A stretch of 64,000 bases of DNA, from contig WGBU01000011.1 in the NCBI GenBank assembly GCA_015494155.1, positions 874 to 64,873 of the forward strand. Direction: 5' to 3'. Numbering within the stretch: position 1 is the first letter of the stretch; each line of letters opens with the position of its first letter. This stretch comes from Deltaproteobacteria bacterium. GTDB taxonomy: Bacteria; Desulfobacterota; Dissulfuribacteria; Dissulfuribacterales; Dissulfuribacteraceae. Below, in pieces: positions 2,126 to 17,497 of this stretch. Under the pieces are notes generated by a model. That model was not told where the DNA came from, ran no database searches, and worked only from the letters and a program-made list of their open reading frames with translations. A program made the position numbers and the translations under genes.

Positions 2126-4552
2126 ATGAATTTCTTTAGGCGATTTTACTCTTTTAAAATGGCCATCCCAGGGATAGTCGGTGTCATGTTTTTAGGTAAT
2201 CTCTTGGCAATAATCACTGGAATCTTTCTAGACCACCACTTGAACCGCCTTTTTGGCACAGAAAGGAGGCTCTTACGGGAACTAGACCTGGTAGAGAGGA
2301 CTCGCTCCATAATTTCATCGGACCCCATTGGTACGGGAGAGATAGAAGGGCTCAGAGGTCTTATTCGAGGTTTCGATGATGGAGATCTGCTTAAGGCCAA
2401 TGGTTCTGTAGAAATCGATCAATTTTTAAAGAAACGGGCCAGTTTCTTGGATAAACTACGGGGATTATTGATGCGCTTAGAAGCTACGCCAAGTGATGGG
2501 GTAGGGCATGTGCAAAATGGTGTCAGTGATTTTCTAAGACAAATCATCCCTACCTTTAAACGCTCTCTTGAAGGGGCTATCAAAAGGGTCGAACGTGATA
2601 TTGAGGGCACAAGGTCTTATTATAAGAAATTATGGGCAGTTCTTTTGGCTGGTGGGATACTATTTATCATCTTCGTGGTATTTTTTAATCAGCGCTATGT
2701 AATCCATCCCCTTTCGTCTGTTATGAGTGCATTGAATGACGCCTCTAAAGGGATCTTTAGAACGGTACTCATCCCCCACGGCCTTAAAGAGGTCAAGGGT
2801 ATCATGACCCTCTACAATATATTTTCAAGCATGATGATGAACATATTCACCACCCTTCGGTCCCAGGAGGATATGATAGATCATGTGAGAGATGCGATTT
2901 CACATTCAGTAAAAAATATAGAGGACTTTAATGAGAAACTGGGTGGGGTTGCCAGTGGCCTTAGTGAGACCTCAGGCCATTCAAGTTTGAGTATAGAGGC
3001 AGTGAACAAGGCCATGCAGGATCTCTCCATAGCTGCCTCGGAGATAGCACATAATGTTCAAAAGGCAGCCGAAAGCGCCAATGGTGCCATGGAGTTGGGA
3101 ACTATGGCCTCGTCTGCCATTGAACGTCTCAATCAGAGCTCTGAAAGGATAGGGGACGTGATAAAGGTGATCAGCACCATTGCAGAGCAGACAAATCTTT
3201 TGGCACTTAACGCCACCATTGAGGCAGCAAGGGCAGGGGAGGCAGGCAAGGGATTTGCCGTAGTAGCCAATGAAGTGAAGGAGCTTGCAAAACAGACTGC
3301 CCAGGCCACCGAGGAGATCACCCAGATGGTAAAGACCATCCAAGGAGATACCCAAGGGGCAGTGGAGTCTGTGAATCAGATGACCCAATCTGTAGAACAG
3401 GTCACAGACCTGGCCAATACCATAGCCAGTGCCACAGAAGAACAGACTGCCACTATATCGGAGATAACAGGAAACGTAGAGCAGGTGAGCAACCTAGTCG
3501 GTGGTCTTGAAACCCAGGCAACAGGCCTAAAAGAGGAGATGGAAAGGCTAGAAGATATGAACCGCGACCTAGTAGTATGTGCAAAGGGTATGGACATGGT
3601 CAAGGAAGAGGCATCTAATCTCAATGCACAGATCATGGTGGACTCAGGCCTCACTCATGAGCTTATGGCGTTGATACCAGAAGAGCAAAGGGTGAATACA
3701 GTCCTATTTCAACACCTCCAGTGGCGTGAGAAGGTGGTGGGTGCCATTATCTCAAGGGTGCCTCCAGAGGTCGAGACAGATCCAACGCGTTGTGGGCTAG
3801 GGAGATTTCTCAAGTCCTACTCTCCCACTGAACATACAATAAAACAGATATTGGATCGTCTGATACCAGTGCACGAGACAATGCACCGCAGGGTAGTGGA
3901 GATACAGGACATGACAGTGAGGGGTGAAAGGCGTCAGACCATATTGAACTATTTCATAGAGAATGTTGAACCCCACTTCAATGAGGTCATCCTCCTCTTA
4001 AACAAGTGGAGTTCATTCTTAAGGGGACAGGGTAGCGATCTTGGGCTGGAAAATCCCAATGATAAGGTGAGAATGGCCGGAAATGTGGTTACACCACAAC
4101 AAACTAGCGGGAGCCCTCGATTAAAAAACAATGAAATCGCCCAGAGGAATTTCATTAAATGGGGACCAAATTTTTCAGTGGGTATAAGAGAGATAGATGA
4201 ACAGCACGAAAAACTCGTCTCAATGGTTAATCAGCTCTACGCAGCTTATCAAATGGGAAAAGACAGAGATGTGGCCTCAAAGCTACTGGATGAACTCATA
4301 AATTATACCATCTATCACTTTAATACAGAAGAAAGATATTTTGATCAGTTTGGCTATCCAGAGGCAGATTCACACAAGCGGATCCACGAAGAGCTTGCAA
4401 AGAAGGTACTCCGATTTAAAGATCGACTCGATAGAGGCGAGACAGGGGTTGCAAGGGAACTCCTCAATTTTTTGAAGGATTGGCTGTCCAATCACATTTG
4501 TATTACAGACAGGCGGTACTCCAGTTTTTTCCACGAGAAAGGATTAAAATAA
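2126..4552 (+). CDS. Methyl-accepting chemotaxis protein with cytoplasmic CZB (zinc-binding) and C-terminal hemerythrin domains
   Basis: 808 aa. Two TM segments flank a ~135-aa periplasmic region. The MCP signalling hairpin reads [37 protein letters not shown], and [10 protein letters not shown] is a canonical methylation site. The CZB signature is HLQW-x22-CGLGRF-x21-HETMH. The hemerythrin ligand pattern is [43 protein letters not shown] lies upstream of the ATG. Confidence 0.85.
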
Positions 4553-4612: not shown

Positions 4613-4771
4613 ATGCAGAAGATGGAATGCCCTTGTGGCTACATCTATGACCCAGAGGTAGGAGACCCAGACAATGGCATAGAGCCAGGCACACCTTTTG
4701 AAGACCTGCCAGACGATTGGGTGTGTCCAAAGTGCGGGGCAGAAAAAGAGCACTTTTACCCAGCGGATTAA
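4613..4771 (+). CDS. Rubredoxin (52 aa, below the ORF-track length cut-off)
   Basis: Manual translation gives [52 protein letters not shown]. The signature is rubredoxin along the whole length, SD GTGGAGG lies 6 nt upstream, and a terminator lies downstream. The first knuckle is CxC rather than CxxC (see findings). Confidence 0.85.
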
Positions 4772-4790: not shown

Positions 4791-4816
4791 GGCCCAGTGA
4801 TTGCTGGGCCTTTTTT
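4791..4816 (+). terminator. Intrinsic terminator after rubredoxin
   Basis: GGCCCAG-tgattg-CTGGGCC hairpin (4791-4810) followed by TTTTTT (4811-4816). It sits between convergent genes. Confidence 0.6.
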
Positions 4817-6023
4817 ATTGGTCATAATCCTTTAATGCAGGTAGTGAAAAATAGAATATAGTGCCGTCCTTGCGATTAGGTAAAGGACTAATTAGGCCAA
4901 TATTGCCCCCATGTGCCTGGATGATCTCTTTACAAAAGGATAGACCAAGCCCCACCCCAAAGAAACAACTCTTTTCTCTGTCTTTGTCGCCTTTTACGAA
5001 TGGATCAAAGATCTGGTCTTTCACCTCTTCTGGGATGGGAACCCCTTTATTTTCCACTGCACATAAAATCTCGCCCCTTTTCACGTCCTTCACCTTTAGT
5101 GGAAGGTCTCTTTCCGGCCTCTGGTAAAAGGCGTGGACAGTTATATTGGAGTCCATGGGCGAGTGTTTAATTGCATTGTCCATGAGATTTGTGAGCACGC
5201 GTCCTATAAGCCTTCGATCTGCTTTAATAATAAGACCTTCTTCCAATAGCCCCTTTTTAATCTCGATACCCTTTCTAGAGGCGCTGCCCTCCTCCAAAAA
5301 AATGGTCTCTTGGACTTGTTCGCCCAGGTCAAAGGCCTCCAGTTCTAGGTGGAGTCGCTTTTCCCTGGCCGCAGTAAGTGCCAGCATGTCTTCAAGGAGC
5401 TCAGATTCCTTTTGAATGGCGTTTTGCACTCTCGATATGATCTCCCTGTGCCTGTCCGTTAGACTATCATCCATAGCGAGGAGTGACAAAAATCCCATGG
5501 CACTGGTTAGCGGTGTCCTGAGGTCGTGGATCAGCATCCTGGTATGCCATTCACGTATCTCAAGTGCCTTTCGCGTCTGACAGCTCTCATGCCTCCACTT
5601 GTCTGTGGCCTGTTTTCTCCCGAGGATGGTCTGGAGTTTACTCGCCAAAAGCGTAGGGGTAACAGGCCGGCTTATATAGTCGTCTGCACCATATTGTAGG
5701 CCTTCTATGGCATGTTCATCATCCATGAGCTGGGCTGTCATGAGGACTACAGGTATGTCACAGGTCTTTTCATTTCCTTTTATCTGTTTACACAGTTCGA
5801 AACCGGTCATACCAGGCATCATCACGTCTGACAGCACTAGGTCTATGTCTCCAAGTTGGCTCTCGAGGATCTTTAGGGCCTCAATGCCACTCGTAGTGGA
5901 AATGACCCTGTAGCCCTCTCTTTTGAGGATTTCAGAAAAGACAAAAAGATTGTCCTCGAGGTCATCCACTAACAAAATTGTTGCCCTAACGGATTTTTCT
6001 CTCTCTGGCGTTGGCCTATTCAT
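4815..6023 (-). CDS. Receiver-histidine kinase (REC-HisKA-HATPase)
   Basis: 402 aa. The N-terminal REC reads ILLVDDLEDN..LVLSDVMMPGMTG. The H-box is IHDLRTPLTS, with N/G boxes LMDNAIKHS and GVGLGLSFCKEI. Confidence 0.85.
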   Translation of the reverse strand: MNRPTPEREKSVRATILLVDDLEDNLFVFSEILKREGYRVISTTSGIEALKILESQLGDIDLVLSDVMMPGMTGFELCKQIKGNEKTCDIPVVLMTAQLMDDEHAIEGLQYGADDYISRPVTPTLLASKLQTILGRKQATDKWRHESCQTRKALEIREWHTRMLIHDLRTPLTSAMGFLSLLAMDDSLTDRHREIISRVQNAIQKESELLEDMLALTAAREKRLHLELEAFDLGEQVQETIFLEEGSASRKGIEIKKGLLEEGLIIKADRRLIGRVLTNLMDNAIKHSPMDSNITVHAFYQRPERDLPLKVKDVKRGEILCAVENKGVPIPEEVKDQIFDPFVKGDKDREKSCFFGVGLGLSFCKEIIQAHGGNIGLISPLPNRKDGTIFYFSLPALKDYDQ

Positions 6024-6053
6024 GGTCCTCTGTCCCCTATCTAGCCGTGTGTA

Positions 6054-8783
6054 TCAAAGCCATTTTTCGAGAATAGAGAATAAGTCATTAGTATCAAAAG
6101 GTTTAGAGATATAATCATCCAGACCTGAATTTAGAATGAACTCCCTGTCGCCCTTCATGGCCTTTGCAGTAAGGGCGATTATTGGTGGAGGGCTACTACT
6201 TTTTATTCTTATCTCTCGAGTTGCACTTATACCGTCCATCTCTGGCATCTGTATATCCATGAGTATGAGGTCAGGCCGCTCCTTTAATGCGAGTTCCACT
6301 GCCTCTTTTCCATTGGAAGCATGAATGATCTCGAAACCCCTGGGTCTCAACATCTCATTCAATAGAAAGAAGTTGTCTGGATTGTCTTCTGCCACCAATA
6401 TTTTGGGCCTCCTTTCTCCCTCATCCGTAGCATCTCCTTTTCCACCAGCCTCTCTTTTGGCCCTGTCCATGATCTCCTTGGGGAGTAGTAGGGCATTTAT
6501 CTGGTTTTTAAGGTCCTCTTGTCTGATGTTTCCCTTCTGTAAGATGGACTTCACATTGGGGGGAAAGAGTCGCTTTGTATCGCTGTCCACATCTAGGCTA
6601 CTCAATACCAAGACTGGGATGTCCCTGGTGGCGTCGTCTCTCGTCATCTCTCGTAAAAATGCAAAACCATCCATTACTGGCATCTTGAGGTCGAGCAACA
6701 CGATGTCGGGCAATTGCTCCCTGAGTACCTTGAGTCCTACCAATGGGTTGCTACAATAGAGTACCTCAAAACCGGCCTGTTTTAGTGCTGTGCTGACCTC
6801 TTTTCCAACCAGTAGGTCATCATCTACCAAAAGGACCCTCTTTGAACTCTGGCGGTCATCCACCTCCTTAGGGGCGTCTTCGCCTGGAGAGGCGCTTTCT
6901 TGTGGGTAGAGAAGTGTATTTTTTAGCCTCTTTTTCCATTCCTCATCGGGCATCCTGTATTTGCTCCTGCGGTCCACAGGGATCAGGACCTTGAATGTGG
7001 TCCCCTTGCCTACCTCACTCTCTACACTAATCTCCCCTCCCAAAAGGGTGGAGAGCTTCTTGCATATGCTTAGTCCAAGGCCAGTACCTCCATATTTTCG
7101 GGTATATGACCCATCAACCTGTCTAAAGGGCTCGAAGATGAACTCTAGGGCATCCTCTGGTATCCCAATACCCGTGTCTGAGACGGTAAACCTGATAAAG
7201 TCCCTATCCTTTCCCTCTACTCCGTCTACTTTCAGTAGGACCATCCCAGATTCAGTGAACTTTATGGCGTTCCCTAGGAGATTGACCAGGATTTGGCGCA
7301 CCTTTTTTGAGTCTGAATAGATGGTCTTTGGGGCATGGTCTATGTCGCACTTGAATTCGAGGCCCTTTGACTCTGCGAGGGGAAGCATCGCCTTACATAC
7401 ACCTGTGACAAAGTCTGGCACATATATAATGTCGTAGTGAAGCTCTTCCCGCCCAGATTCGATACGTGTGAGATCGAGTATGTCGTTTATGAGGTCCAGC
7501 AGATTTTGTCCGTTTCTCAATACTATGTCCAGATACTCCTGTTGCCTTGGTGAGAGTGGGTGCTCTTGGTCCTCTTTGAGTAGCCGTACGAGGCCCAGTA
7601 TGGAATTAAGTGGGGTGCGGAGTTCGTGGCTCATATTAGACAGGAATACAGACTTCATCCTGTTGGCCTCTTCAGCCTCGATACTCTTTTGTTCAAGGGC
7701 GTCCTTCTGCGCAGCTAGCTCCTCTGCCTGTGCCTGTATCTCCTCTGTCTGGGCCATTAATTCTTCGCTCTGTGCCTGGAGTTCCTCGTTTTGTGCCTGG
7801 AGCCTTTCATTCTTTTCCTGCAGTTCCTGTTGAAGTCCCTTGAGCCGCTCTATGAAAAATGCATTCTGGATGGCCACTGCCAGTTGTCCGCAAAGTCCCT
7901 TGAAGAAAGGGCCATAGGGTTTTAGCGATTGAAGAGAAGAGAGTTCCAACATGCCAAGGCGATTTTCCTTTATAGTAAAGGGGAGGAAAACGAGGTGGAG
8001 GCGTTTGGCTTCGAAGAGGCCTGATTTCAACTTCATATAGTCAGGTGGTACATCCTCCAAGAAATAGGCCTCTTTTCTCTTGAAGACCTCACCGAAGAGC
8101 CCTTCTTTGCACCCTATAGGGGGTGGCGTGTGTGTTAGACCAATACCGTGGACACCTACTAGGGTCTCTCCATCGTCATGGCTCACCACATAAAAGGCAC
8201 CAGAGAGAATTGGTAGAAACTCTACAAGGGCTTCCAGTACGCGTTGCGCCATGGCCTCGATCTCCACCTCTTCATTCAAGATCTTGGAGATCTCATATCC
8301 AAGTTCCAACTCCTTTAGACGATGCTCTAACTCCCTGTTTTTCTTCTCAAGGCTCTTGGAGAAGGCCATGAGGTCGCTCTGATCTGTAATGGCCTCGATG
8401 ATCCCAATAATCTCACCCTTTTCATTAAAAAAAGGTGTCGCCCTGCATGTGGCTGGAAACGAAGTACCGTTCCACAATATGCATTCAAAGTGCTGTACCA
8501 CCTCCCTTTCACCATTGAGGATGAGCCTTACAGGGCATTCGTCTGTATTGCAGAGGGTATCGCTCCTGGCGATCTCATAGCAGCGTTTACCAATGATCTG
8601 TGGATCCAACACCTGGCACAACGAATTCATGGCCGGGTTGTGGGCGAGGATTGAAAAGTCTGTACCTACAATCCTTATGGGAGTAAGACCCTGGTGGTAC
8701 AACTGATAAACCGCCTCGTAGGTCAATATCCCATCGTCATCATATATGGAAATCGTGGGATTTTTGCGAGGAATGGGTATCAT
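6054..8783 (-). CDS. Hybrid sensor histidine kinase (Cys-rich PAS, GAF, Gln/Glu-rich coiled coil, HisKA, HATPase, two REC domains)
   Basis: 909 aa. The H-box is MSHELRTPLNS, with ATPase boxes LLGNAIKFT, DTGIGIP and GGTGLGLSICKKL. REC1 reads VLLVDDDLL..LLDLKMPVMDG and REC2 reads ILVAEDNPDN..LMDIQMPEMDG. Confidence 0.85.
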   Translation of the reverse strand: MIPIPRKNPTISIYDDDGILTYEAVYQLYHQGLTPIRIVGTDFSILAHNPAMNSLCQVLDPQIIGKRCYEIARSDTLCNTDECPVRLILNGEREVVQHFECILWNGTSFPATCRATPFFNEKGEIIGIIEAITDQSDLMAFSKSLEKKNRELEHRLKELELGYEISKILNEEVEIEAMAQRVLEALVEFLPILSGAFYVVSHDDGETLVGVHGIGLTHTPPPIGCKEGLFGEVFKRKEAYFLEDVPPDYMKLKSGLFEAKRLHLVFLPFTIKENRLGMLELSSLQSLKPYGPFFKGLCGQLAVAIQNAFFIERLKGLQQELQEKNERLQAQNEELQAQSEELMAQTEEIQAQAEELAAQKDALEQKSIEAEEANRMKSVFLSNMSHELRTPLNSILGLVRLLKEDQEHPLSPRQQEYLDIVLRNGQNLLDLINDILDLTRIESGREELHYDIIYVPDFVTGVCKAMLPLAESKGLEFKCDIDHAPKTIYSDSKKVRQILVNLLGNAIKFTESGMVLLKVDGVEGKDRDFIRFTVSDTGIGIPEDALEFIFEPFRQVDGSYTRKYGGTGLGLSICKKLSTLLGGEISVESEVGKGTTFKVLIPVDRRSKYRMPDEEWKKRLKNTLLYPQESASPGEDAPKEVDDRQSSKRVLLVDDDLLVGKEVSTALKQAGFEVLYCSNPLVGLKVLREQLPDIVLLDLKMPVMDGFAFLREMTRDDATRDIPVLVLSSLDVDSDTKRLFPPNVKSILQKGNIRQEDLKNQINALLLPKEIMDRAKREAGGKGDATDEGERRPKILVAEDNPDNFFLLNEMLRPRGFEIIHASNGKEAVELALKERPDLILMDIQMPEMDGISATREIRIKSSSPPPIIALTAKAMKGDREFILNSGLDDYISKPFDTNDLFSILEKWL

Positions 8784-8788
8784 GGACT

Positions 8789-9655
8789 TTAAGTCTCCTT
8801 GACGTAAATCTTGTGTTCTCTACTAAAGAGGGTGAATTTTTCCCTCATATGTCCTGAAAGACCTTCTGCCTTACCTAGAACGAGAAAACCCTTTGGCCTC
8901 AAGGCCTGATAGACCTTGTGGAGCATGCGCGCCTTCATCTGGTCGTCATAGTATATGAGCACATTTCTGAGAAACACCATGTCGAACTCTGCAAATACAC
9001 CGCTAGGGGGCGAAGTGAATTCCTGTGTGGTGCAGTCAAACTGGAGGAAGAACACCATTTCTTTGAGGGATGGGGCCACTGCATAGAGTTCTTCTTCACT
9101 CGATTGTAGTCTAGTAAAATATGAGGGATATTCTACAAGGGCGCTGGCCACTGATTCTGGCGAATAAATGCCCCGCTGTGCCATCTTTATGGCCACAGGG
9201 TCCACATCTGAGCCAATGATCGTTGCCTCCACACCGTTTGCCCATGGTCTTTCCCTTTTGAATTCGAGAATGAGTATGCCTACGGAATATGCCTCTTCCC
9301 CAGTGGCACATGCGGCACACCAGACCCTCACAGGCCCCCTCTGTCTAAAAAGTTCTGGCAACACAGCATCCTTTATGGTGTGGAACACCTTGGGATCTCG
9401 AAAAAATTTACTCACCTTTATTGTGAGAGAATCAAACAGTCTTTGATATTCGGTTGGTTCTCGTTTGAGGAGCCTCAGATAGTCCTGTAAGGTATGGCAC
9501 CTGGTGAGAATGAGCCTCCTGTTTATACGGCGAAGGAGGGTCGTCTTCTTGAAGTGGGAAAAGGGGCACCCAGACCACTTCTCCATTAGGGAGACGATCT
9601 CATCGAGGGCATTCCTCTCATCATTGGCCATGGGTGAACAATATTCTCGGTACAT
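8789..9655 (-). CDS. cheR: CheR-type protein-glutamate O-methyltransferase
   Basis: 288 aa. A CheR N-terminal helical domain is followed by the SAM-binding motif VWCAACATGEEAYSVGILI. The alternative start M9 (9631) would shorten the overlap with the upstream gene. Confidence 0.85.
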   Translation of the reverse strand: MYREYCSPMANDERNALDEIVSLMEKWSGCPFSHFKKTTLLRRINRRLILTRCHTLQDYLRLLKREPTEYQRLFDSLTIKVSKFFRDPKVFHTIKDAVLPELFRQRGPVRVWCAACATGEEAYSVGILILEFKRERPWANGVEATIIGSDVDPVAIKMAQRGIYSPESVASALVEYPSYFTRLQSSEEELYAVAPSLKEMVFFLQFDCTTQEFTSPPSGVFAEFDMVFLRNVLIYYDDQMKARMLHKVYQALRPKGFLVLGKAEGLSGHMREKFTLFSREHKIYVKET

Positions 9656-10967
9656 ATTCTATGATCTCAGTTACTGTCCCCTCATCCATTTTCAAGAGGG
9701 CAAGTGTGTCTGTATCTAATATGTTGGACATGGTGTCGCACCCAAGACCAATACCTAGCATGTTACATATATAATTTGACACATGGACAATACCCACGAG
9801 TTCTTTTGAGTCATCTGTCTTGTGTGGTTCGTGATGGTATGAAATGGCCCTTACTAGGGCATTGGGTAGGCCCCATTCTTGGGCCACAAATTTCCCCAAT
9901 TCAGCATGGTCTGTTCCAAGGCACTCCTTTTCTGCCAAAAAGAAGGGGATCCTCTTTATTGATGCACTCATCTTAACAGTAATAAAGGTATTGGTAAAAT
10001 TTTGTTCTACCAAAATCTTGCCTATATCGTGCATCAAGGCAGCCAGATACGCCTCTTCTGGGTCTGCAATTGCCAGTCTGTCTGCCAAAAATTGGGACAG
10101 TTCAGCACAGGCTACTGCGTGGTGAAAGAAGGCCTGGTCATCGAGCTCGTAGCCTTTAAATGGCTTGCTGTATAGCCCTTTTATGCACGCCTGCATGACG
10201 ATCTTCTTAAACGTAGTAGTGCCCAGTAGGTTAATGGCATGGGATAGCTTGGTGATCTGGCGCTGTAGTCCATAGCGTGCAGAATTGACAATTCCGAGGA
10301 TGCGGCCACAGAGTACCTGGTCCTTTAATATGAGTTCTTCCAATTCCCTGAAGCATATATCGTCACCCCTTACCAGTTGAAGCGCCCTTATGGCCACATT
10401 GGAGTCTGGCTTAAGTTCACTCGCCATCTTTCTAAGGCTATTTTCATCCAGTCTTGGGGCCTTGGGGCGTGGTTCGTCTTTGTCCCCTATAAGACCTCCT
10501 TTTGCCCCCCTTGATCGTTTTATCTCCACCTCTCCTGTGGGAAGAGTCAACTTGAGTCTTCTTCCCACAGAGCCACCCACATCCATGGAAATAATTGGGA
10601 TCGCGTATGCATCTAGGATTTCCTTGGCCTTAATGGTGTTTCGTTTGCCGATATTGAGGTCTTGGATAGCCCCCTTTGTTACGATGTGGGCTCCGCCTGC
10701 CATGTGGGCGACAATCCCAGACATAGTGGCACCCTTTTCGAGCAGAGCATCAATGAGTGCTGGTATTGCACTTTGTGCATAGTAAAGAGGGGTCTCCTCC
10801 ATCTTGTGTGTGGGGCCAGAGGGGAGTAGCACATGTACTACTCCACCTGCCTGTGCATCCTGATCATAAAGGGCAAGCCCAATACAGGAGCCAAGCAGTG
10901 TCTCAAGCACTGCCTCCTCCCGGCAGGATACTACCATGTCTCCGGGTTCGATAAGTGTGTATTTCAT
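9621..10967 (-). CDS. CheD (chemoreceptor glutamine deamidase) fused to an HDOD domain
   Basis: The N-terminal ~155 aa show the CheD pattern (MKYTLIEPGDMVVS..LETLLGSCIGLALYD..GGVVHVLLP..MAGGAHIV..IGKRN..MDVGGSVGRRL). The C-terminal ~280 aa show the HDOD pattern (ILGIVNSARYGLQRQITKLSHAINLLG..HHAVACAEL..LMHDIGKIL). I start at ATG 10967; the track ORF begins at GTG 10991. Confidence 0.8.
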   Translation of the reverse strand: MKYTLIEPGDMVVSCREEAVLETLLGSCIGLALYDQDAQAGGVVHVLLPSGPTHKMEETPLYYAQSAIPALIDALLEKGATMSGIVAHMAGGAHIVTKGAIQDLNIGKRNTIKAKEILDAYAIPIISMDVGGSVGRRLKLTLPTGEVEIKRSRGAKGGLIGDKDEPRPKAPRLDENSLRKMASELKPDSNVAIRALQLVRGDDICFRELEELILKDQVLCGRILGIVNSARYGLQRQITKLSHAINLLGTTTFKKIVMQACIKGLYSKPFKGYELDDQAFFHHAVACAELSQFLADRLAIADPEEAYLAALMHDIGKILVEQNFTNTFITVKMSASIKRIPFFLAEKECLGTDHAELGKFVAQEWGLPNALVRAISYHHEPHKTDDSKELVGIVHVSNYICNMLGIGLGCDTMSNILDTDTLALLKMDEGTVTEIIEYVPRILFTHGQ

Positions 10968-11009
10968 TTTTTGATGGGTGCACGCACCCAACTACCGTGA
11001 ACGCCGTGG

Positions 11010-11213
11010 TCACCCACAAGACTCGAGGTGCGCCATCTTCTTTTTGTATTCCTCGTAAGAGATTTCACCATTTATATATCTTCTATGCACCTTCTTTTTC
11101 GGATCTTCAAGGAATTTTTTTAAAAAATTTTTTTCTTTTGTGAGGAACAGTACAAAGATGATGACAACGAGTCCAAAGAACACTAAGACGCTCTGTAGAT
11201 CACTCATGGCCAA
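11010..11213 (-). CDS. Small membrane protein with a SHOCT-like C-terminal motif
   Basis: 67 aa with one TM (VLVFFGLVVIIFVLFL). The tail RRYINGEISYEEYKKKMAHL resembles the RYARGEI-EEEY SHOCT motif. Confidence 0.5.
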   Translation of the reverse strand: MAMSDLQSVLVFFGLVVIIFVLFLTKEKNFLKKFLEDPKKKVHRRYINGEISYEEYKKKMAHLESCG

Positions 11214-11338
11214 GACTCCATGTGGGATGCAAAATGATTCGTTATTGTACCAACTTTTAGGAGGTGTGGCAAACTTGTCAAACTCCTCTCTCTGGTGCTA
11301 TAAAAATGGTTAATAAAAATTTTATTGGGGGCGCTGGT

Positions 11339-11785
11339 ATGGTTCTCTCTGCAGGGGTCATTGTAGTTAGAAGGGAGGATGGAAAGTGGTATTACCTCCT
11401 CCTTCGGGCATTTGGGTATTGGGATTTTCCAAAGGGAATTGTGGAAGAGGGTGAAGATCCCCTAGATGCAGCCATTCGCGAGGTGGAGGAAGAGACTGGG
11501 ATAAACGACCTAACCTTCCACTGGGGACCTGTCTATAAGGAGAGTGCCCCTTACCTTGGTGGGAGAAAGAAGGCTAGGTATTATGTGGCAGAGACCAAGA
11601 CCAAAGATGTGGAGCTCAGGGTGAATCCAGAACTAGGACATCCAGAACACGACGCCTATAGGTGGGTAGATTTTGATGAAGCTATGGCCATGCTTGCAGA
11701 ACGGGTAAAGCCATGTATCACATGGGCCCGTGATCTGATCGAATCCCAGCCCCCAGGAGGCCAAGATATGGATGAAGGCAGATAA
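11339..11785 (+). CDS. NUDIX hydrolase (Ap4A-hydrolase-like)
   Basis: The Nudix box is GYWDFPKGIVEEGEDPLDAAIREVEEETGI. I prefer ATG 11339, which has GGGGG 8 nt upstream and a TTGTCA-18-TATAAA promoter-like element at 11273-11302. The track ORF starts at 11264. Confidence 0.75.
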   Translation: MVLSAGVIVVRREDGKWYYLLLRAFGYWDFPKGIVEEGEDPLDAAIREVEEETGINDLTFHWGPVYKESAPYLGGRKKARYYVAETKTKDVELRVNPELGHPEHDAYRWVDFDEAMAMLAERVKPCITWARDLIESQPPGGQDMDEGR

Positions 11786-12659
11786 AGACTGGGACCTCCC
11801 TTAAGACCTTTTTCATGCGCCCCTTATCTTCAAAAAAGTCTCGAAATCCAAGGTCCAAAAAGGCCTCTTTGATCTTTGGGGCAATGCCTCCAGCAATGTA
11901 CACACCACCAAAGGCGAGAGTCTTTAGGGCGAGATTTGCTGCCTCCCTGGCATAGGCCCTTATAAAGAGCCTCACGCACTTAAGTGCAGTGTCTTCTCCC
12001 CTTACAAGCGCCCTTTCTACCACCTCTTTTGGGGTAATGACTTCCCCCTTAAAGTACTCATACGTATGTTGGATGCCAGGCCCAGAGACCACCCTCTCCA
12101 CACTCACATGGCCAAACCTCTTCTGGAGGAACTTATAAAGGCCCCATTCATCCTCATCCATTGGCGAAAAGTCTGTGTGGCCACCCTCTGTGGGGAGGAT
12201 GTGAAACCCCTTTGTCTCACAAGGGACGATGATGGCCTCGCCAAGTCCTGTCCCTGCCCCCAACACGCACCGTGTGCCCTCTCTGGGCCTTACACCGCCC
12301 AACTCAAAGAGTTCCTCTTTTTTTAGGGCAGTGACCCCCCACGCCGCTGCCTCAAAGTCGTTCAATAGATAGACCCTGGCGCCCATCTCCTCTTTAAGGG
12401 CCTTTGCATCTATGGTCCAGGGAAGGTTGACACCTCGTGCCACACCATCCTCCACTGTTCCTGCTACCCCAATGGAAAGACAATTTACCTCGTTGCTCTC
12501 AAGACCACGTTCTCTTATATAGGTCTTTAGGATCGCCTCAAAACTCTCGAACCCAGACGATGGCCAGACACGCACTGCCTCAAGTTCCCTATTGGCGTAT
12601 TGGGCGAGTCTTGAGTTAGTCCCCCCTATGTCTGCCACAATGGTCAAGGCCATCTTCAC
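11718..12659 (-). CDS. glk: Glucokinase
   Basis: 313 aa. The N-terminus is ADIGGTNSRLA, followed by GAGTGLGEA and a GGIAPKI..LLGAG tail typical of the Glk family. Confidence 0.8.
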   Translation of the reverse strand: MKMALTIVADIGGTNSRLAQYANRELEAVRVWPSSGFESFEAILKTYIRERGLESNEVNCLSIGVAGTVEDGVARGVNLPWTIDAKALKEEMGARVYLLNDFEAAAWGVTALKKEELFELGGVRPREGTRCVLGAGTGLGEAIIVPCETKGFHILPTEGGHTDFSPMDEDEWGLYKFLQKRFGHVSVERVVSGPGIQHTYEYFKGEVITPKEVVERALVRGEDTALKCVRLFIRAYAREAANLALKTLAFGGVYIAGGIAPKIKEAFLDLGFRDFFEDKGRMKKVLREVPVFICLHPYLGLLGAGIRSDHGPM

Positions 12660-13729
12660 ATTCTAATATGCTCTGAAAGCCCCTTGGTCAGGTCGAGAAC
12701 CCGTTCTGCCAACTCCTCACTCAGAAGCCCTGTCCCGCAACTTGGCGTAATAAGGCTTGAGCGGACGATCTCCTCCCTTGTAAGGCCAAGGGCCTTTTGG
12801 GCCTCAAAGAATCTATTGGCGAGATCCTCCACGCTCGCATCCACTATATCGTCTTCCCTCTGGGTGGGGACGAGTCCCCATGCAATTACTCCACCCCGCT
12901 CAAGAAAGCCCAGTATCTCATCCTTAAATATGAGGAATCGGTCGAGGTATCCAAATGCATCGAAGCTAATAATATCTAGCTCAAGTACTGGGTCCAAGAG
13001 GAGGGACCACTCTGTATTGGCGCACACATGGATTCCACAAAGTGCATCTGCCTGGTGCACCTCGTCGATTACGGACTTTAAGTCCTTTTGTACCTCTTCA
13101 CGCTTCATTCCCACCATGGTGGACGAGCCAAAGCCGGCAAGTGCTGGTTCATCCAAAAAGACAATGGCACGATCGGCCCTTTCCCTGAGCTTCTTGGCCT
13201 GAAATGCCGCCTTTAGCCCCACCCCTTGGACAATGGCCTCTTTGAGCTGTGGGTTGTAGTAGGTGAGCCTTCCATCCTTCTCTTTTAGACCAGTTAGGAG
13301 GGTAAAGGGCCCTGTGATCTGGCCCTTGAGGGCATATGGAGGTGGGTTGAGCCCCTCAACCTTTTTCAAAAAGATGAAAAGACCCGGGGCGCGTTCCTTA
13401 GAGATGGCGAATATGGAGTCCTCAATGGCCTTAGCACCCTCTTTTACTGCAAGGTATTCCTCAAAAAAGGCGAGAAAGTCCTGTTCAAATGTGGGTGAAT
13501 TCGTGTCGAAATAGATGGACCCACCTTCTTCGTCCTCTACGAGCCCTGGAAAGCCCTCTACAAATTGGGTGAGCAGACGCTCTTTGGGATACTTGGGGAG
13601 TTGGACCCATATGGGGCAATCCTCCATATACTTTAGCACAAGGTCTTGGGCGGTCTCATGGTCTCTGTGGGGGAGGCTCCCTATGAGGGTGGCCATCGCC
13701 CCTGGTCTAAAATTATCTAAAGGTGCCAT
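12656..13729 (-). CDS. MetE-C-terminal-like (core-MetE type) zinc methyltransferase-family protein
   Basis: 357 aa. FLDEPALAG matches the MetE IDEPAL motif, and HVC...SCGTG matches the MetE HxC/C zinc ligand pattern. The function is not established. Confidence 0.5.
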   Translation of the reverse strand: MAPLDNFRPGAMATLIGSLPHRDHETAQDLVLKYMEDCPIWVQLPKYPKERLLTQFVEGFPGLVEDEEGGSIYFDTNSPTFEQDFLAFFEEYLAVKEGAKAIEDSIFAISKERAPGLFIFLKKVEGLNPPPYALKGQITGPFTLLTGLKEKDGRLTYYNPQLKEAIVQGVGLKAAFQAKKLRERADRAIVFLDEPALAGFGSSTMVGMKREEVQKDLKSVIDEVHQADALCGIHVCANTEWSLLLDPVLELDIISFDAFGYLDRFLIFKDEILGFLERGGVIAWGLVPTQREDDIVDASVEDLANRFFEAQKALGLTREEIVRSSLITPSCGTGLLSEELAERVLDLTKGLSEHIRM

Positions 13730-13763
13730 GCCTATTGCTCCTTTCTCGATGATGGCCCATTTG

Positions 13764-15284
13764 CTAGGGCTTGTAGACGATCTCGTACTGTTCTACGTGT
13801 AGTTCTGGCCTTGATACTATGGTGATGGACTTTTTCAAGAAGTCCTCCAGATACTCCAGATGGTGTGCCTCATGATTGAGCACGAGGTCGCCCACCCTGG
13901 GGTGAACATGGATCTCGATCTCAGAACAGTTTGCCCACCTTGCCTCGCTTTTAACACGCCTAAAGATGTCGTAGGCCATAGTGCGTCGCGACCGCAATAT
14001 GCCCTCTCCTTCACAGTAGAAACATGGTTCACTCATGATGCGCGACAGGCTGTCGCGATTTCGCTTTCTCGTCATCTGGATGAGGCCTATCTCCGACATC
14101 TTGAGTATGTTGGTCTTACACTTGTCCTTGCTCACGGCCTTTGAAAGGGCCTTGAAGACCTCTTCCCTGTGGGTGGGATTTTCCATGTCAATAAAATCTA
14201 TTATGATGATCCCACCTATGTTCCTGAGCCTCAACTGGTAGGCGATCTCCTTCACTGCCTCGAGATTGGTCTTTAAGATGGTGTCTTCTAGGTGGCGTTT
14301 CCCTACATATTTACCAGTATTCACATCTATTGCAGTGAGGGCCTCTGTGCTCTCTATTACGATGTAGCCCCCAGATTTGAGCCACACCTTTTTCCCCAGG
14401 ACCTTTGTAAGCTCCATCTCTATGCCAAAGGCCTCGAAGATGGGCTGTGGATAGTCGTAATACTCTACCCTTGGCCTGAGTTCATGGCAGAAGTTGTCCA
14501 CAAACTCTACGATCCTGGCATAGGCGGTCTCAGAGTCCACCACTAGGCGCTTTACATCCCCTGTGAATAGGTCCCGTACTGCTCTAAGCGTTATGTCCAG
14601 GTCCTCATATATGAGCCCAGGTACCTGGATGGAGGAGGCCTTTTTCTGGATATTTTCCCAGAGCTTTATGAGGAATTCCATCTCGCTCTGTATGTCTATG
14701 GCACTTGTACCCTCACTTGCAGTCCTAGCAATGAACCCGAGCCCCTGTGGCCTCAGGGCCTCAATGAGGTCCCTTAACCGCTTTCTCTCCTTTTCGTCCT
14801 TGATCCGCCTGGATATGCCCACGTGGTTCATAGTGGGCATGAGTACGAGATACCTCCCTGGAAGCGATATGTGAGACGTGACCCTGGCGCCCTTGGTCCC
14901 CAAAGGGCCCTTGGAGACCTGTACCAGGATCTCTTGGCCATTGTGAAGGAGGTCTTCGATGCGAAATGGGGGGGCCTCGTAGTGGAGCGGATGCTCTTCC
15001 TCCTCTTCCAGAAATTCATAGTCTGCTCGACCTAGCATCATCTCGAACTCTGGCAGGTGGTCGTATATGTCGGTGACATATAGGAAGGCAGTGCGCTGGA
15101 GCCCTATCTCTACAAAGGCAGCCTGCATCCCAGGTAGTACCCGTACCACCTTACCCTTGTAGATATTCCCCACATAGCCCCGCTCTGCCTCGCGTTCCAC
15201 ATGGAATTCCACTACAGTCCCATTTTCCAGCAGTGCCACCCGTGTCTCCCAGGGCTCTACATTTATGATGAGTTCACTTGCCAT
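13764..15284 (-). CDS. rng: Ribonuclease G/E family endoribonuclease
   Basis: 506 aa. The S1 domain reads GNIYKGKVVRVLPGMQAAFVEIG and the catalytic core reads GGIIIIDFIDM. The ATG overlaps the ftsK stop (ATGA). Confidence 0.85.
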   Translation of the reverse strand: MASELIINVEPWETRVALLENGTVVEFHVEREAERGYVGNIYKGKVVRVLPGMQAAFVEIGLQRTAFLYVTDIYDHLPEFEMMLGRADYEFLEEEEEHPLHYEAPPFRIEDLLHNGQEILVQVSKGPLGTKGARVTSHISLPGRYLVLMPTMNHVGISRRIKDEKERKRLRDLIEALRPQGLGFIARTASEGTSAIDIQSEMEFLIKLWENIQKKASSIQVPGLIYEDLDITLRAVRDLFTGDVKRLVVDSETAYARIVEFVDNFCHELRPRVEYYDYPQPIFEAFGIEMELTKVLGKKVWLKSGGYIVIESTEALTAIDVNTGKYVGKRHLEDTILKTNLEAVKEIAYQLRLRNIGGIIIIDFIDMENPTHREEVFKALSKAVSKDKCKTNILKMSEIGLIQMTRKRNRDSLSRIMSEPCFYCEGEGILRSRRTMAYDIFRRVKSEARWANCSEIEIHVHPRVGDLVLNHEAHHLEYLEDFLKKSITIVSRPELHVEQYEIVYKP

Positions 15285-17497
15285 CAGATATCGCTGTATC
15301 CTTTCACCAGCACCTGTCTACGTCCCATGGAGTCTGCGGGACTGACGATCCCGTCCCGTTCCATCTGTTCTATCATGCGGGCAGCGCGATTATAGCCCAC
15401 CCTGAGCCTCCTTTGTATCATGGAAATGGACGCCTGACCAGACTGGGTGACGATATCGATGGCCTGGTCATAGAGAGCATCCTTGAAGTCTCCCTTGCCA
15501 CCAACATGGTCTGAATCGTCCTCTTCCTGGTCTTTGGGCTCGGTGACGCTGAGATCGTAATTGGGGCTCCCCTGGCCACGCCAGAAGTCTGTAACTGCCT
15601 TTATCTCTTCTTCTGAGCAGTAGGCGCCATGGATGCGCTCTAGGTTGGATGAGCCTGGTGGGAGAAAGAGCATGTCTCCAAGGCCTAGTAGCCTCTCTGC
15701 CCCTCCAGTGTCGAGGATCGTGCGCGAGTCCACCTTGGACGACACCTTGAAAGACAACCTTGCAGGGAAGTTTGCCTTTATGAGCCCTGTCAACACATCC
15801 ACACTGGGCCTCTGGGTAGCCACTATGAGGTGTATACCTGCGGCCCTGGCCATCTGGGCGAGCCTTGCTATGGCGCCCTCTACCTCCTTTGAAGAGACCA
15901 TCATGAGGTCTGCAAGCTCGTCTATTATTATCACAAGATAGGGAAGCTCTCTCCTTTCTTCCTCCTCTCCATTTTTCAGTGCCCCCTCTTTACGGATCTT
16001 CTTGTTGTATGTGTTTATGTTTCTTGAGCCAGTGGACTCGAGTAGCTCGTAGCGCCTCTCCATCTCTTGGACTGCCCAACGGAGTGCCTGGGTGGCCTCT
16101 TTGGGATTACTCACCACAGGGTGGAGCAGGTGGGGTATCCCATCGTAGAGGGAGAGTTCAATCCTCTTAGGATCTACCATGAGGAGCCTCAGATCTGTGG
16201 GGAGGTGCCTAAAAAGGAGGCTACAGATCATGGCATTTAGACCAACGCTCTTCCCAGTACCTGTGGCACCTGCAATGAGAAGGTGTGGCATCTTTGCGAG
16301 ATCCGTTATCACTGGTTCGCCTATCACGTCCTTTCCCAGTGCCAGGGGCAGCACCCACCTCTTCTCTCTGAATATGTCTGAACTGAGTATCTCCTTTAGA
16401 TAGACAATGTGCCTCTTTTGATTGGCAAGTTCGATCCCTATTACAGACTTTCCAGGTATTGGGGCGACTATGCGAACACTATGAGACTTTAGGGCCAGGG
16501 CAATGTCGTCCTGTAACGAGGCCACCTTGTTGATCTTTACACCTGGGGCAGGGCTGAATTCGTACATGGTGACCACAGGCCCTGGACATATCTCTACTAC
16601 CTTGCCTTTGACCCCGAAATCGAGGAGTTTTTGTTCGAGCACCCTGGCATTTTCATAAAATTGTTCCTCGTCAAGCTCCATCTCCACATCTGGAGGGTCT
16701 TTGAGTAGGTCTAGGTGGGGGAGCACAAAGCTACCCTCAACGGCCTGTGTCACTGGAAAGTGCTCTGATTTTTGGTCGGTATCTCCTCCCTGCTGTCCTC
16801 GGTTTGCCCTGGACGATGTCCACTTGGGGTCTGCTATCCTGGGAAGCGTTTGATCTTCAATCTGTTCATCTCTTTCTTCCATCTCGGTCTTCTTACCTCT
16901 GGGGCGGCCTTTTTTGGTATTGATCCTATCCTTCTTTATAGAGAGCTCTTCCTCTTCTCTCCTTGTAAAGAGTGAAATCAGGTGCTCAAATTCAAGGGTC
17001 GTCCCAATCATTATGCCAGAGACCATTGAGAATATAGAAAGTAGTACCACCCCCCCAACGCCTATCCATGTGACGAAAAAGTCCTTTAAATGTCGGCCTA
17101 AAAGCCCTCCAGGGGCCTCCCCTAAGAAGGTGTCATTGAAGAAGGCGAGACCCGTGGCAGCCCCAACCATGAAGAGCACAAGGCCTGCCCACAGATGGAG
17201 GTTAGAGGGTATGAAGGCCCTTGAGGCCTCAAAGAGGCCAAAGGCCGAGAGGAGGAGCGCCAACGGGAAGGCCCACGCCACTAGCCCAAAGAGGCTTATG
17301 AGAAAATCTGCCATGCTCGCTCCCACAGGCCCCATGAGATTTTCGCTGGGGCCAAGGGGATATGCAGTGAGCGAAGGGTCCTTTGGTGTATATGTGGCAA
17401 GGGACAGGGCCAGGAAGATGGCCCCAACCACTAGGAGTAGGCAACTGAATTCACGCTTAATGAAATGCGGATTTTTTACATCCTGGCTATTGGCCAT
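15284..17497 (-). CDS. ftsK: DNA translocase FtsK
   Basis: 737 aa with N-terminal TM helices. Walker A is GATGTGKS and Walker B is IIIDELADLM. The gamma winged helix reads ISMIQRRLRVGYNRAARMIEQME. Confidence 0.9.
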   Translation of the reverse strand: MANSQDVKNPHFIKREFSCLLLVVGAIFLALSLATYTPKDPSLTAYPLGPSENLMGPVGASMADFLISLFGLVAWAFPLALLLSAFGLFEASRAFIPSNLHLWAGLVLFMVGAATGLAFFNDTFLGEAPGGLLGRHLKDFFVTWIGVGGVVLLSIFSMVSGIMIGTTLEFEHLISLFTRREEEELSIKKDRINTKKGRPRGKKTEMEERDEQIEDQTLPRIADPKWTSSRANRGQQGGDTDQKSEHFPVTQAVEGSFVLPHLDLLKDPPDVEMELDEEQFYENARVLEQKLLDFGVKGKVVEICPGPVVTMYEFSPAPGVKINKVASLQDDIALALKSHSVRIVAPIPGKSVIGIELANQKRHIVYLKEILSSDIFREKRWVLPLALGKDVIGEPVITDLAKMPHLLIAGATGTGKSVGLNAMICSLLFRHLPTDLRLLMVDPKRIELSLYDGIPHLLHPVVSNPKEATQALRWAVQEMERRYELLESTGSRNINTYNKKIRKEGALKNGEEEERRELPYLVIIIDELADLMMVSSKEVEGAIARLAQMARAAGIHLIVATQRPSVDVLTGLIKANFPARLSFKVSSKVDSRTILDTGGAERLLGLGDMLFLPPGSSNLERIHGAYCSEEEIKAVTDFWRGQGSPNYDLSVTEPKDQEEDDSDHVGGKGDFKDALYDQAIDIVTQSGQASISMIQRRLRVGYNRAARMIEQMERDGIVSPADSMGRRQVLVKGYSDI

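Follow-up and report, generated by a model that had tools for sequence, protein, structure and literature searches.

Within a 64,000-nucleotide stretch of the genome of a Deltaproteobacteria bacterium of the Dissulfuribacteraceae (assembly GCA_015494155.1, contig WGBU01000011.1, positions 874 to 64,873; hereafter the window), a gene at 6054..8783 on the minus strand encodes a hybrid sensor histidine kinase of 909 amino acids, directly downstream of genes for a CheR-type methyltransferase and a CheD-HDOD fusion protein. We conclude that this protein is probably a methyl-accepting coiled-coil (MAC) hybrid histidine kinase, of the MAC2 type and similar to RsbK of Bacillus cereus, which is methylated by the adjacent CheR while the CheD-HDOD protein opposes that modification. 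The observations behind this conclusion are the anatomy of the sequence, a predicted continuous helix, a conserved gene cassette, co-variation of a coiled-coil repeat with cheR, and mutual exclusion of CheB and CheD-HDOD among related loci. An earlier note on this DNA had proposed that the kinase is methylated and deamidated on its own coiled coil. Methylation is partly supported by linkage, co-variation and the precedent of RsbK and its methyltransferase RsbM, whereas support for deamidation is poor, the residue pairs in question being Glu-Glu already. That a kinase could be methylated on its own coiled coil is a sound idea and one already known, both from MAC2 proteins and from the methylatable signalling helix (S-helix) of RsbK. 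What is new here is the CheD-HDOD partner in the place usually taken by CheB, together with a very regular array of four sites.

The array occupies kinase residues 330-358 (7710..7796, minus strand), which read AQNEELQAQSEELMAQTEEIQAQAEELAA in the translation of 6054-8783 and comprise four heptad-spaced A-Q-x-E-E-[LI]-x-A units. We scanned the whole 909-residue protein with the 8-residue core of the methylation consensus of methyl-accepting chemotaxis proteins (MCPs), [ASTG]xx[EQ][EQ]xx[ASTG]. It matched at 330, 337, 344 and 351 only, which bears out the earlier description of four consecutive A-x-x-E-E-x-x-A units in heptad register. In the 10-residue frame the outer positions of the four units are Q/Q, Q/Q, M/Q and Q/Q. 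The claim that these positions are Gln therefore holds on both sides in three of the four units, but one unit has Met on its N-terminal side. Likewise, the Gln said to precede each Glu pair is present in all units, but lies two residues ahead of the pair (A-Q-x-E-E) rather than adjoining it. When residues 306-375 were shuffled with their composition kept, a heptad chain of four cores arose in 0 of 200,000 shuffles and a chain of three in 74, and the array is therefore exact rather than an effect of composition. The heptad register read from the sequence places Leu or Ile at d, Asn, Ser, Thr or Ala at a, the Glu pair at the exposed b and c positions and Ala at f, with the two conserved Gln falling at e and g. 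In each pair it is the second Glu that is predicted to accept the methyl group, giving E334, E341, E348 and E355 (codons 7782-7784, 7761-7763, 7740-7742 and 7719-7721, minus strand). A full-text literature search with the repeat strings returned irrelevant matches only.

A Pfam scan gave the kinase the architecture PAS-GAF-coiled coil-HisKA-HATPase-REC-REC, with PAS at 35-137, GAF at 174-305, HisKA at 377-444, HATPase at 491-604 and two C-terminal receiver domains, the second at 795-905. The phospho-accepting histidine is His386 (codon 7626-7628). The same scan found no match to PF00015 (MCPsignal) in the kinase; this domain is present in the product of a nearby gene at 2126-4552. We modelled residues 160-460 with AlphaFold2, using 42 homologues in the alignment. 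The model predicts one continuous helix of 117 residues over 288-404 (7572..7922, minus strand; residues 129-245 of the modelled segment), made up of the C-terminal helix of the GAF domain, the S-helix and DHp helix 1. Block means of the predicted local distance difference test (pLDDT) were 94-97 over the repeat array and 82-97 over the entire helix. Since the predicted helix is uninterrupted, the array would sit on the very helix that connects the GAF domain to His386. A structure search with the model returned GAF domains and kinases only, so that nothing was gained for the coiled coil. The protein has the trait that marks MAC2 proteins, namely a histidine kinase with a coiled coil of heptad-spaced, methylation-like Glu pairs.

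The repeat is strongly conserved. A protein search with the kinase yielded 120 relatives that share its core of GAF, coiled coil, HisKA, HATPase and REC-REC and vary in their N-terminal sensor domains; in most of them 3-6 such units stand shortly before the H-box. Counted over 119 homologues, the pair is EE in 101/119 where its second member lies at His-31, in 103/119 at His-38, in 112/119 at His-45 and in 91/119 at His-52. The second residue of the pair is almost invariably Glu, and Gln occurs at pair positions in at most 2% of the homologues. In the 42-sequence alignment, with a mean column identity of 39%, the exposed Glu and the flanking Gln vary little or not at all, level with the H-box itself. 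Judged from these alignments, such constraint on an exposed Glu would not be expected from coiled-coil packing alone. The array is thus a real feature, not a product of chance, and under functional constraint; its class is known but barely studied, and it does not introduce a new principle.

The genes around the kinase form a compact unit. As the earlier note had it, cheD, cheR and the kinase gene follow one another (9621-10991, 8789-9655 and 6054-8783), all three on the minus strand, with neighbouring genes touching or overlapping. The 8789..9655 product is a CheR-type protein-glutamate O-methyltransferase with a CheR_N domain (PF03705, E=6.9e-10, 38.9 bits against a cut-off of 27) and an S-adenosylmethionine (SAM)-binding CheR domain (PF01739, E=5.5e-41, 140.6 bits against a cut-off of 27). 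Its relatives in the PDB are 5FTW, 5XLY and 1AF7, at E about 1e-23, and its stop codon lies 5 bases ahead of the kinase start. The CheD-HDOD fusion (9621..10991, minus strand) matches PF03975 (E=1.3e-23) and PF08668 (E=2.9e-47). As called mechanically, its open reading frame (ORF) begins at a TTG and encodes 456 amino acids, while the product in the public record has 429 and would lack part of the CheD fold. The likely true start is the ATG at 10967 (M9 of the mechanical ORF), which gives 448 amino acids and is favoured when the protein is aligned with its homologues and the Thermotoga maritima CheD structure 2F9Z. The protein has a CheD fold with the catalytic Cys and His: the motifs LGSC and HVLLP that hold them line up with those of T. 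maritima CheD (2F9Z chain C) and are kept in the cassette homologues. Among NCBIfam models it comes closest to the Thermotoga-type 'glutamine deamidase/glutamate methylesterase', with a score under the cut-off; it missed the cut-offs of all NCBIfam equivalogs. A fourth gene (4815..6023, minus strand) encodes a REC-HisKA-HATPase protein by Pfam scan and is the probable phosphorelay partner of the kinase.

We then retrieved the genomic contexts of seven kinase relatives with 33-48% identity. CheR lies directly upstream of the kinase in 7/7, and in 5/7, the closer ones, CheD-HDOD lies upstream of CheR and a REC-kinase gene downstream of the kinase. This last gene encodes REC-HisKA(-HATPase) in L081, L083, L085, L086 and L087 (our labels for loci). 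The outer flanks of the seven contexts are unrelated to each other, and no MCP was found near the cassette in any of them, neighbours being Pfam-annotated in five. Two of these loci also have a small HTH_17-REC regulator by the cassette, before CheD-HDOD in L085 (5184-5753) and between CheR and the kinase in L086 (3650-4255). A sigma-54 activator lies downstream in L086 and L087, and together with the HTH_17-REC proteins it may hint at a transcriptional output.

Since a repeat of this kind might reflect no more than generic coiled-coil composition, the earlier note had called for a comparison of its occurrence with and without a linked cheR. A genome scan with an alignment of the helix and H-box as query, using one genome per species, gave 80 diverse kinase loci. 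A CheR homologue was present in 26/80, in each case abutting the kinase or no more than a few hundred bases away, most often downstream as in rsbK-rsbM. Kinases counted as unlinked were those that lack CheR and have 3 kb or more of flank on either side. Heptad chains of at least two EE[LIMV] units occurred in 20/26 CheR-adjacent and 3/32 unlinked kinases (Fisher p=1.3e-7), and after dereplication in 20/25 and 3/20, respectively (Fisher p=1.5e-5). The repeat thus does not occur equally in the two sets, and the proposal came through this comparison. The strict 8-residue core separated linked from unlinked kinases poorly, with means of 1.04 and 0.59 per kinase. The feature that tracks cheR is therefore the EE-hydrophobic heptad; the small flanking residues track CheD and not CheR.

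The B. cereus system is the one studied case of such an arrangement. RsbK has the architecture CHASE3-HAMP-GAF-S-helix-kinase-REC, and methylation of its S-helix by the adjacent CheR-type RsbM keeps sigma B off; 127 RsbK-like kinases were described from ten phyla, relief of RsbK was argued not to proceed via demethylation, and RsbM has no cognate esterase (PMC4574943). The window kinase is likewise a hybrid kinase with GAF, S-helix, HisKA, HATPase and REC domains beside a CheR-type methyltransferase. However, RsbK senses through CHASE3-HAMP and the window kinase through PAS, and RsbK has one REC domain and the window kinase two. The B. cereus gene order is kinase then methyltransferase, in contrast to CheD-HDOD, CheR and kinase here. 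RsbK is partnered by the PP2C regulator RsbY in a sigB cluster, the window kinase by a REC-kinase, and neither CHASE3-HAMP, RsbY nor a sigB/rsbV/rsbW cluster was found at the window locus. RsbM is an orphan with no esterase, whereas the window cassette has CheD-HDOD. Finally, the distance between the repeats and the His is 52-80 residues in RsbK-like proteins and 31-53 in the window kinase, and the Ala/Ser flanks are regular in the latter but not in the former.

The Glu pairs of the two systems share a phase relative to the catalytic His. B. cereus RsbK was missing among the best 120 relatives of a Planococcaceae RsbK-like kinase, and Bacillaceae orthologues were substituted. Among 120 Bacillaceae RsbK-like proteins, the residue at His-66 is the second Glu of a QxEELQ heptad in 115 and the residue at His-59 that of the next heptad in 117. 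These two distances and those of the second Glu in the window kinase (His-52, -45, -38 and -31) are all congruent to 3 modulo 7, placing the Bacillaceae Glu in the phase of the window pairs. The same holds for 80/91 EE units in CheR-adjacent loci. According to Chen et al. 2012, Glu439 of RsbK is reportedly the preferred methylation site, Glu446 a minor one and His505 the phospho-acceptor; a literature search for Glu439 or E439 of RsbK found nothing.

The MAC2 class goes back to Wuichet and Zhulin 2010 and is taken here as later sources describe it. In a 2022 preprint, MAC proteins are stated to incorporate CheB and CheR (MAC1) or to be associated with them (MAC2), and to be experimentally uncharacterised in every respect (bioRxiv 10.1101/2022.05.07.491037). 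MiST3 has profiles for both MAC1 and MAC2 (PMC6943060). The window kinase resembles MAC2 proteins, as described there, in joining receptor and kinase in one protein, in its methylation-like heptad coiled coil and in its separate CheR, which is associated with the kinase both here and in 7/7 homologues. It departs from the description of the class, which has CheB together with CheR, in that the window clade has CheD-HDOD and no CheB. The MAC2-style kinase-CheR-CheB arrangement is present in 15 related loci but not in the window clade. MAC1 proteins offer a second parallel. The earlier note had mentioned an NEELQ-type coiled coil after CheR in CheB-CheR-PAS-kinase fusions, and we found one example, in the Nostoc locus L042 (AANEEILSSNEELQSTNEELETAKEEIQATNEELNT). 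This protein has an xNEE[LI] heptad array of five units, each matching the 8-residue core, with flanks nearer the MCP consensus (3/4 small positions). Its enzymes are, however, fused in cis, and its array lies directly after CheR and ahead of PAS rather than by the H-box. The fusion is of MAC1 type, with 1424 residues arranged as CheB-CheR-coiled coil-PAS-kinase-REC (13056-17327, minus strand), and lies next to, and convergent with, a gene for a 2162-residue GAF-coiled coil kinase (5876-12361, plus strand). With the methylation helices of MCPs themselves, the kinase shares heptad-spaced Glu/Gln pairs at b and c, small residues at f and the CheR and CheD enzyme families, and it may share charge neutralisation on a signalling helix. 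Unlike an MCP, it has no MCPsignal domain and no coupling to CheA or CheW, the outer small residues of the consensus are Gln, and a two-helix parallel coiled coil is expected in place of the antiparallel four-helix bundle.

Across 34 CheR-linked kinase loci, an esterase-only CheB lies directly after CheR in 15/34 (L004, L006, L009, L011, L015, L019, L021, L038, L039, L041, L043, L044, L056, L069 and L079) and CheD-HDOD directly before CheR in 8/34, these being the window and its clade. The two never occur together (0/34), and 11/34 have neither CheB nor CheD, the RsbK-like loci of Bacillales included. No CheB homologue was found in the 8 CheD-HDOD cassettes, nor was one detected in the whole 64-kb window. 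The 15 CheB-like ORFs come from loci of many phyla and measure about 190-270 amino acids from stop to stop. This leaves no room for a receiver domain and therefore points to an esterase lacking the usual control by phosphorylation. The mutual exclusion suggests that CheD-HDOD performs the function that CheB has elsewhere.

The composition of the repeat follows the same division. In cassettes with CheD-HDOD plus CheR (8 kinases, 30 units), a small residue occupies frame position 2 in 87% of units and position 9 in 97%, compared with 46% and 36% in CheR-only cassettes (26 kinases, 78 units). Chao et al. 2006 reportedly showed that T. maritima CheD hydrolyses glutamyl methyl esters, deamidates Gln and recognises A/S-x-x-E/Q-E/Q-x-x-A/S. 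The small flanks of the CheD cassettes agree with that recognition motif. Since all four pairs are Glu-Glu, Gln is so rare at pair positions and the conserved Gln lies outside the pair, deamidation appears unlikely as a general feature of the array. The conserved Gln of the A-Q dipeptide was considered as a deamidation site and rejected, as it sits at heptad e/g and not in the b/c pair on which CheD and CheB act. CheD would therefore more probably act as a methylesterase (demethylase) or a binding regulator than as a deamidase. No mention of HDOD jointly with CheD and CheR was found in the literature searched. A metagenome scan with the CheD-HDOD alignment showed at least 6 full-length fusions among the matches listed, a count that is not a fair census because the matches were dominated by the generic HDOD pattern.

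We infer the following mechanism, in which methylation itself, the residues modified, the direction in which the kinase responds and what CheD does are all predictions. CheR would methylate the second Glu of the pairs, at as many as four sites in each chain and eight in a dimer. The four Glu-Glu pairs would be solvent-exposed at b/c, all in the same helical phase relative to His386, and neutralising this acidic stripe could alter the packing, stability or rotation of the signalling helix. An altered helix would in turn shift the balance between kinase and phosphatase activity of the DHp domain, and by analogy with RsbK methylation might also change docking of the C-terminal receivers (PMC4574943). 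CheD-HDOD would be the opposing arm, most likely by hydrolysing the methyl esters, which is the role of CheB in related cassettes; alternatively, it may be a regulator that binds the A-x-x-E-E-x-x-A motif. Output of the kinase would pass to the downstream REC-kinase (4815-6023).

Several findings weigh against this scheme. The 10-residue MCP consensus, [ASTG][ASTG]xx[EQ][EQ]xx[ASTG][ASTG], has no match in the 909-residue kinase. Two kinases have EEL heptad chains and no CheR within 10 kb (L024, 8633-11449, and L063, 6752-12295); one chain of this kind, from a Paenibacillus taichungensis kinase with no CheR within 10 kb, reads EELQVYTEELQTQSEELQMQ. The CheD-HDOD kinases form one clade, so that CheD and small flanking residues may have become associated just once in evolution. 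Fusions of CheD to HDOD are also found at places with neither a CheR nor a kinase gene nearby (L091, 6968-8335, and L093, 2846-4228). By the residue numbers reportedly published, RsbK E439 and E446 would fall at His-66 and His-59 relative to H505, the alignment itself covering Bacillaceae orthologues of the B. cereus protein. Lastly, an MCP with a canonical site is encoded on the other strand, 260 bases off, and could be an alternative or additional substrate of CheR and CheD. As to the exceptional loci themselves, L024 and L063 may have a methyltransferase gene in another place, or their kinases may keep the repeat with no such enzyme. The CheD-HDOD proteins of L091 and L093 are about 30% identical to that of the window, and are flanked by genes for GDP-mannose dehydratase and SelA in L091 and for dihydroorotate dehydrogenase and a HAD hydrolase in L093.

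With these points in mind we considered three other explanations. It is unlikely that methylation is constitutive and works as a fixed 'off' lock, as has been proposed for RsbK and its orphan RsbM, with CheD-HDOD serving an unrelated signalling role through its HDOD domain. Such a lock would suit the argument of the RsbK authors that demethylation is not what brings relief and that RsbM lacks an esterase of its own (PMC4574943), as it would the 11/34 CheR-linked loci lacking both CheB and CheD and the presence of CheD-HDOD elsewhere without CheR. However, CheD-HDOD is kept in every examined cassette of the clade and never stands alongside CheB, and its conserved, catalytically intact CheD motifs argue for turnover over a static lock. 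We regard as still less probable a scheme in which the repeat is a docking site, where CheD and/or CheR bind the helix and regulate it allosterically with no covalent turnover. That the small flanking residues follow the presence of CheD and that Glu-Glu pairs offer nothing to deamidate would fit docking, and in Bacillus subtilis chemotaxis requires the binding of CheD rather than deamidation (PMC3513319). Against docking, the SAM-binding domain of CheR is intact and far over the Pfam cut-off, the catalytic Cys and His of CheD are kept across the cassette, and RsbK is covalently methylated (PMC4574943). Moreover, in 15 related cassettes the corresponding place is taken by a CheB esterase, which implies methyl turnover. 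Finally, it is improbable that CheR and CheD-HDOD serve conventional MCPs such as the neighbouring one, the EE repeat being mere coiled-coil composition and the adjacency co-regulation: that MCP does have the canonical 10-residue site which the kinase repeat misses, and Q/E-rich coiled coils are common upstream of H-boxes, but the cassettes of the 7 homologues lack a nearby MCP in varied genomic settings (with Pfam-annotated neighbours in five), EE heptad chains follow cheR adjacency, the exposed second Glu is conserved beyond what coiled-coil composition would predict, and RsbM methylates RsbK directly (PMC4574943).

Other genes in the neighbourhood were annotated as well. The transmembrane MCP is encoded at 2126-4552 on the plus strand, convergent with the kinase operon, and has a C-terminal zinc-binding CZB domain and a bacteriohemerythrin domain; its one canonical 10-residue methylation site is at residues 434-443. 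After it on the same strand lies an ORF for a rubredoxin of 52 amino acids with CxxC...CPKCG motifs (4613-4771), and the two together resemble an oxygen- or redox-sensing chemoreceptor unit. We considered the MCP as a member of the cassette and rejected it; it is missing from every other context examined and is therefore not a conserved cassette part. The Pfam-scanned neighbours of the kinase include the REC-kinase, glucokinase, RNase G and FtsK, with no PP2C, anti-sigma or sigma genes among them. An ORF of 357 amino acids between the glucokinase and RNase G genes (12656-13729, minus strand) has no Pfam match at E <=0.001.

In teaching, adaptation by methylation is usually tied to chemoreceptor arrays. 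The MAC-type kinases suggest that this form of memory has also been joined directly to ordinary two-component kinases. As a more tentative extension, which we hold with somewhat less than even confidence, CheD-HDOD may have replaced CheB in this Thermodesulfobacteriota clade and the substrate helix, with the CheD recognition motif A/S-x-x-E-E-x-x-A/S in every heptad, co-evolved with it, so that the HDOD domain gates demethylation by a second input in a reversible system free of MCP, CheA, CheW and CheB. If this is true, it would amount to complete reversible methylation on a two-component kinase, with eight sites per dimer. For RsbK/RsbM the demethylase is not known (PMC4574943). With its compact four genes, soluble kinase, regular array and CheD-type candidate demethylase, the window cassette is therefore a convenient experimental system. 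It is suited to asking whether methylation of the S-helix tunes a kinase reversibly, whether CheD can act as the sole esterase, and what role HDOD has. For CheR-linked kinases more widely, the counts of loci with CheB, with CheD-HDOD or with neither give a simple comparative framework.

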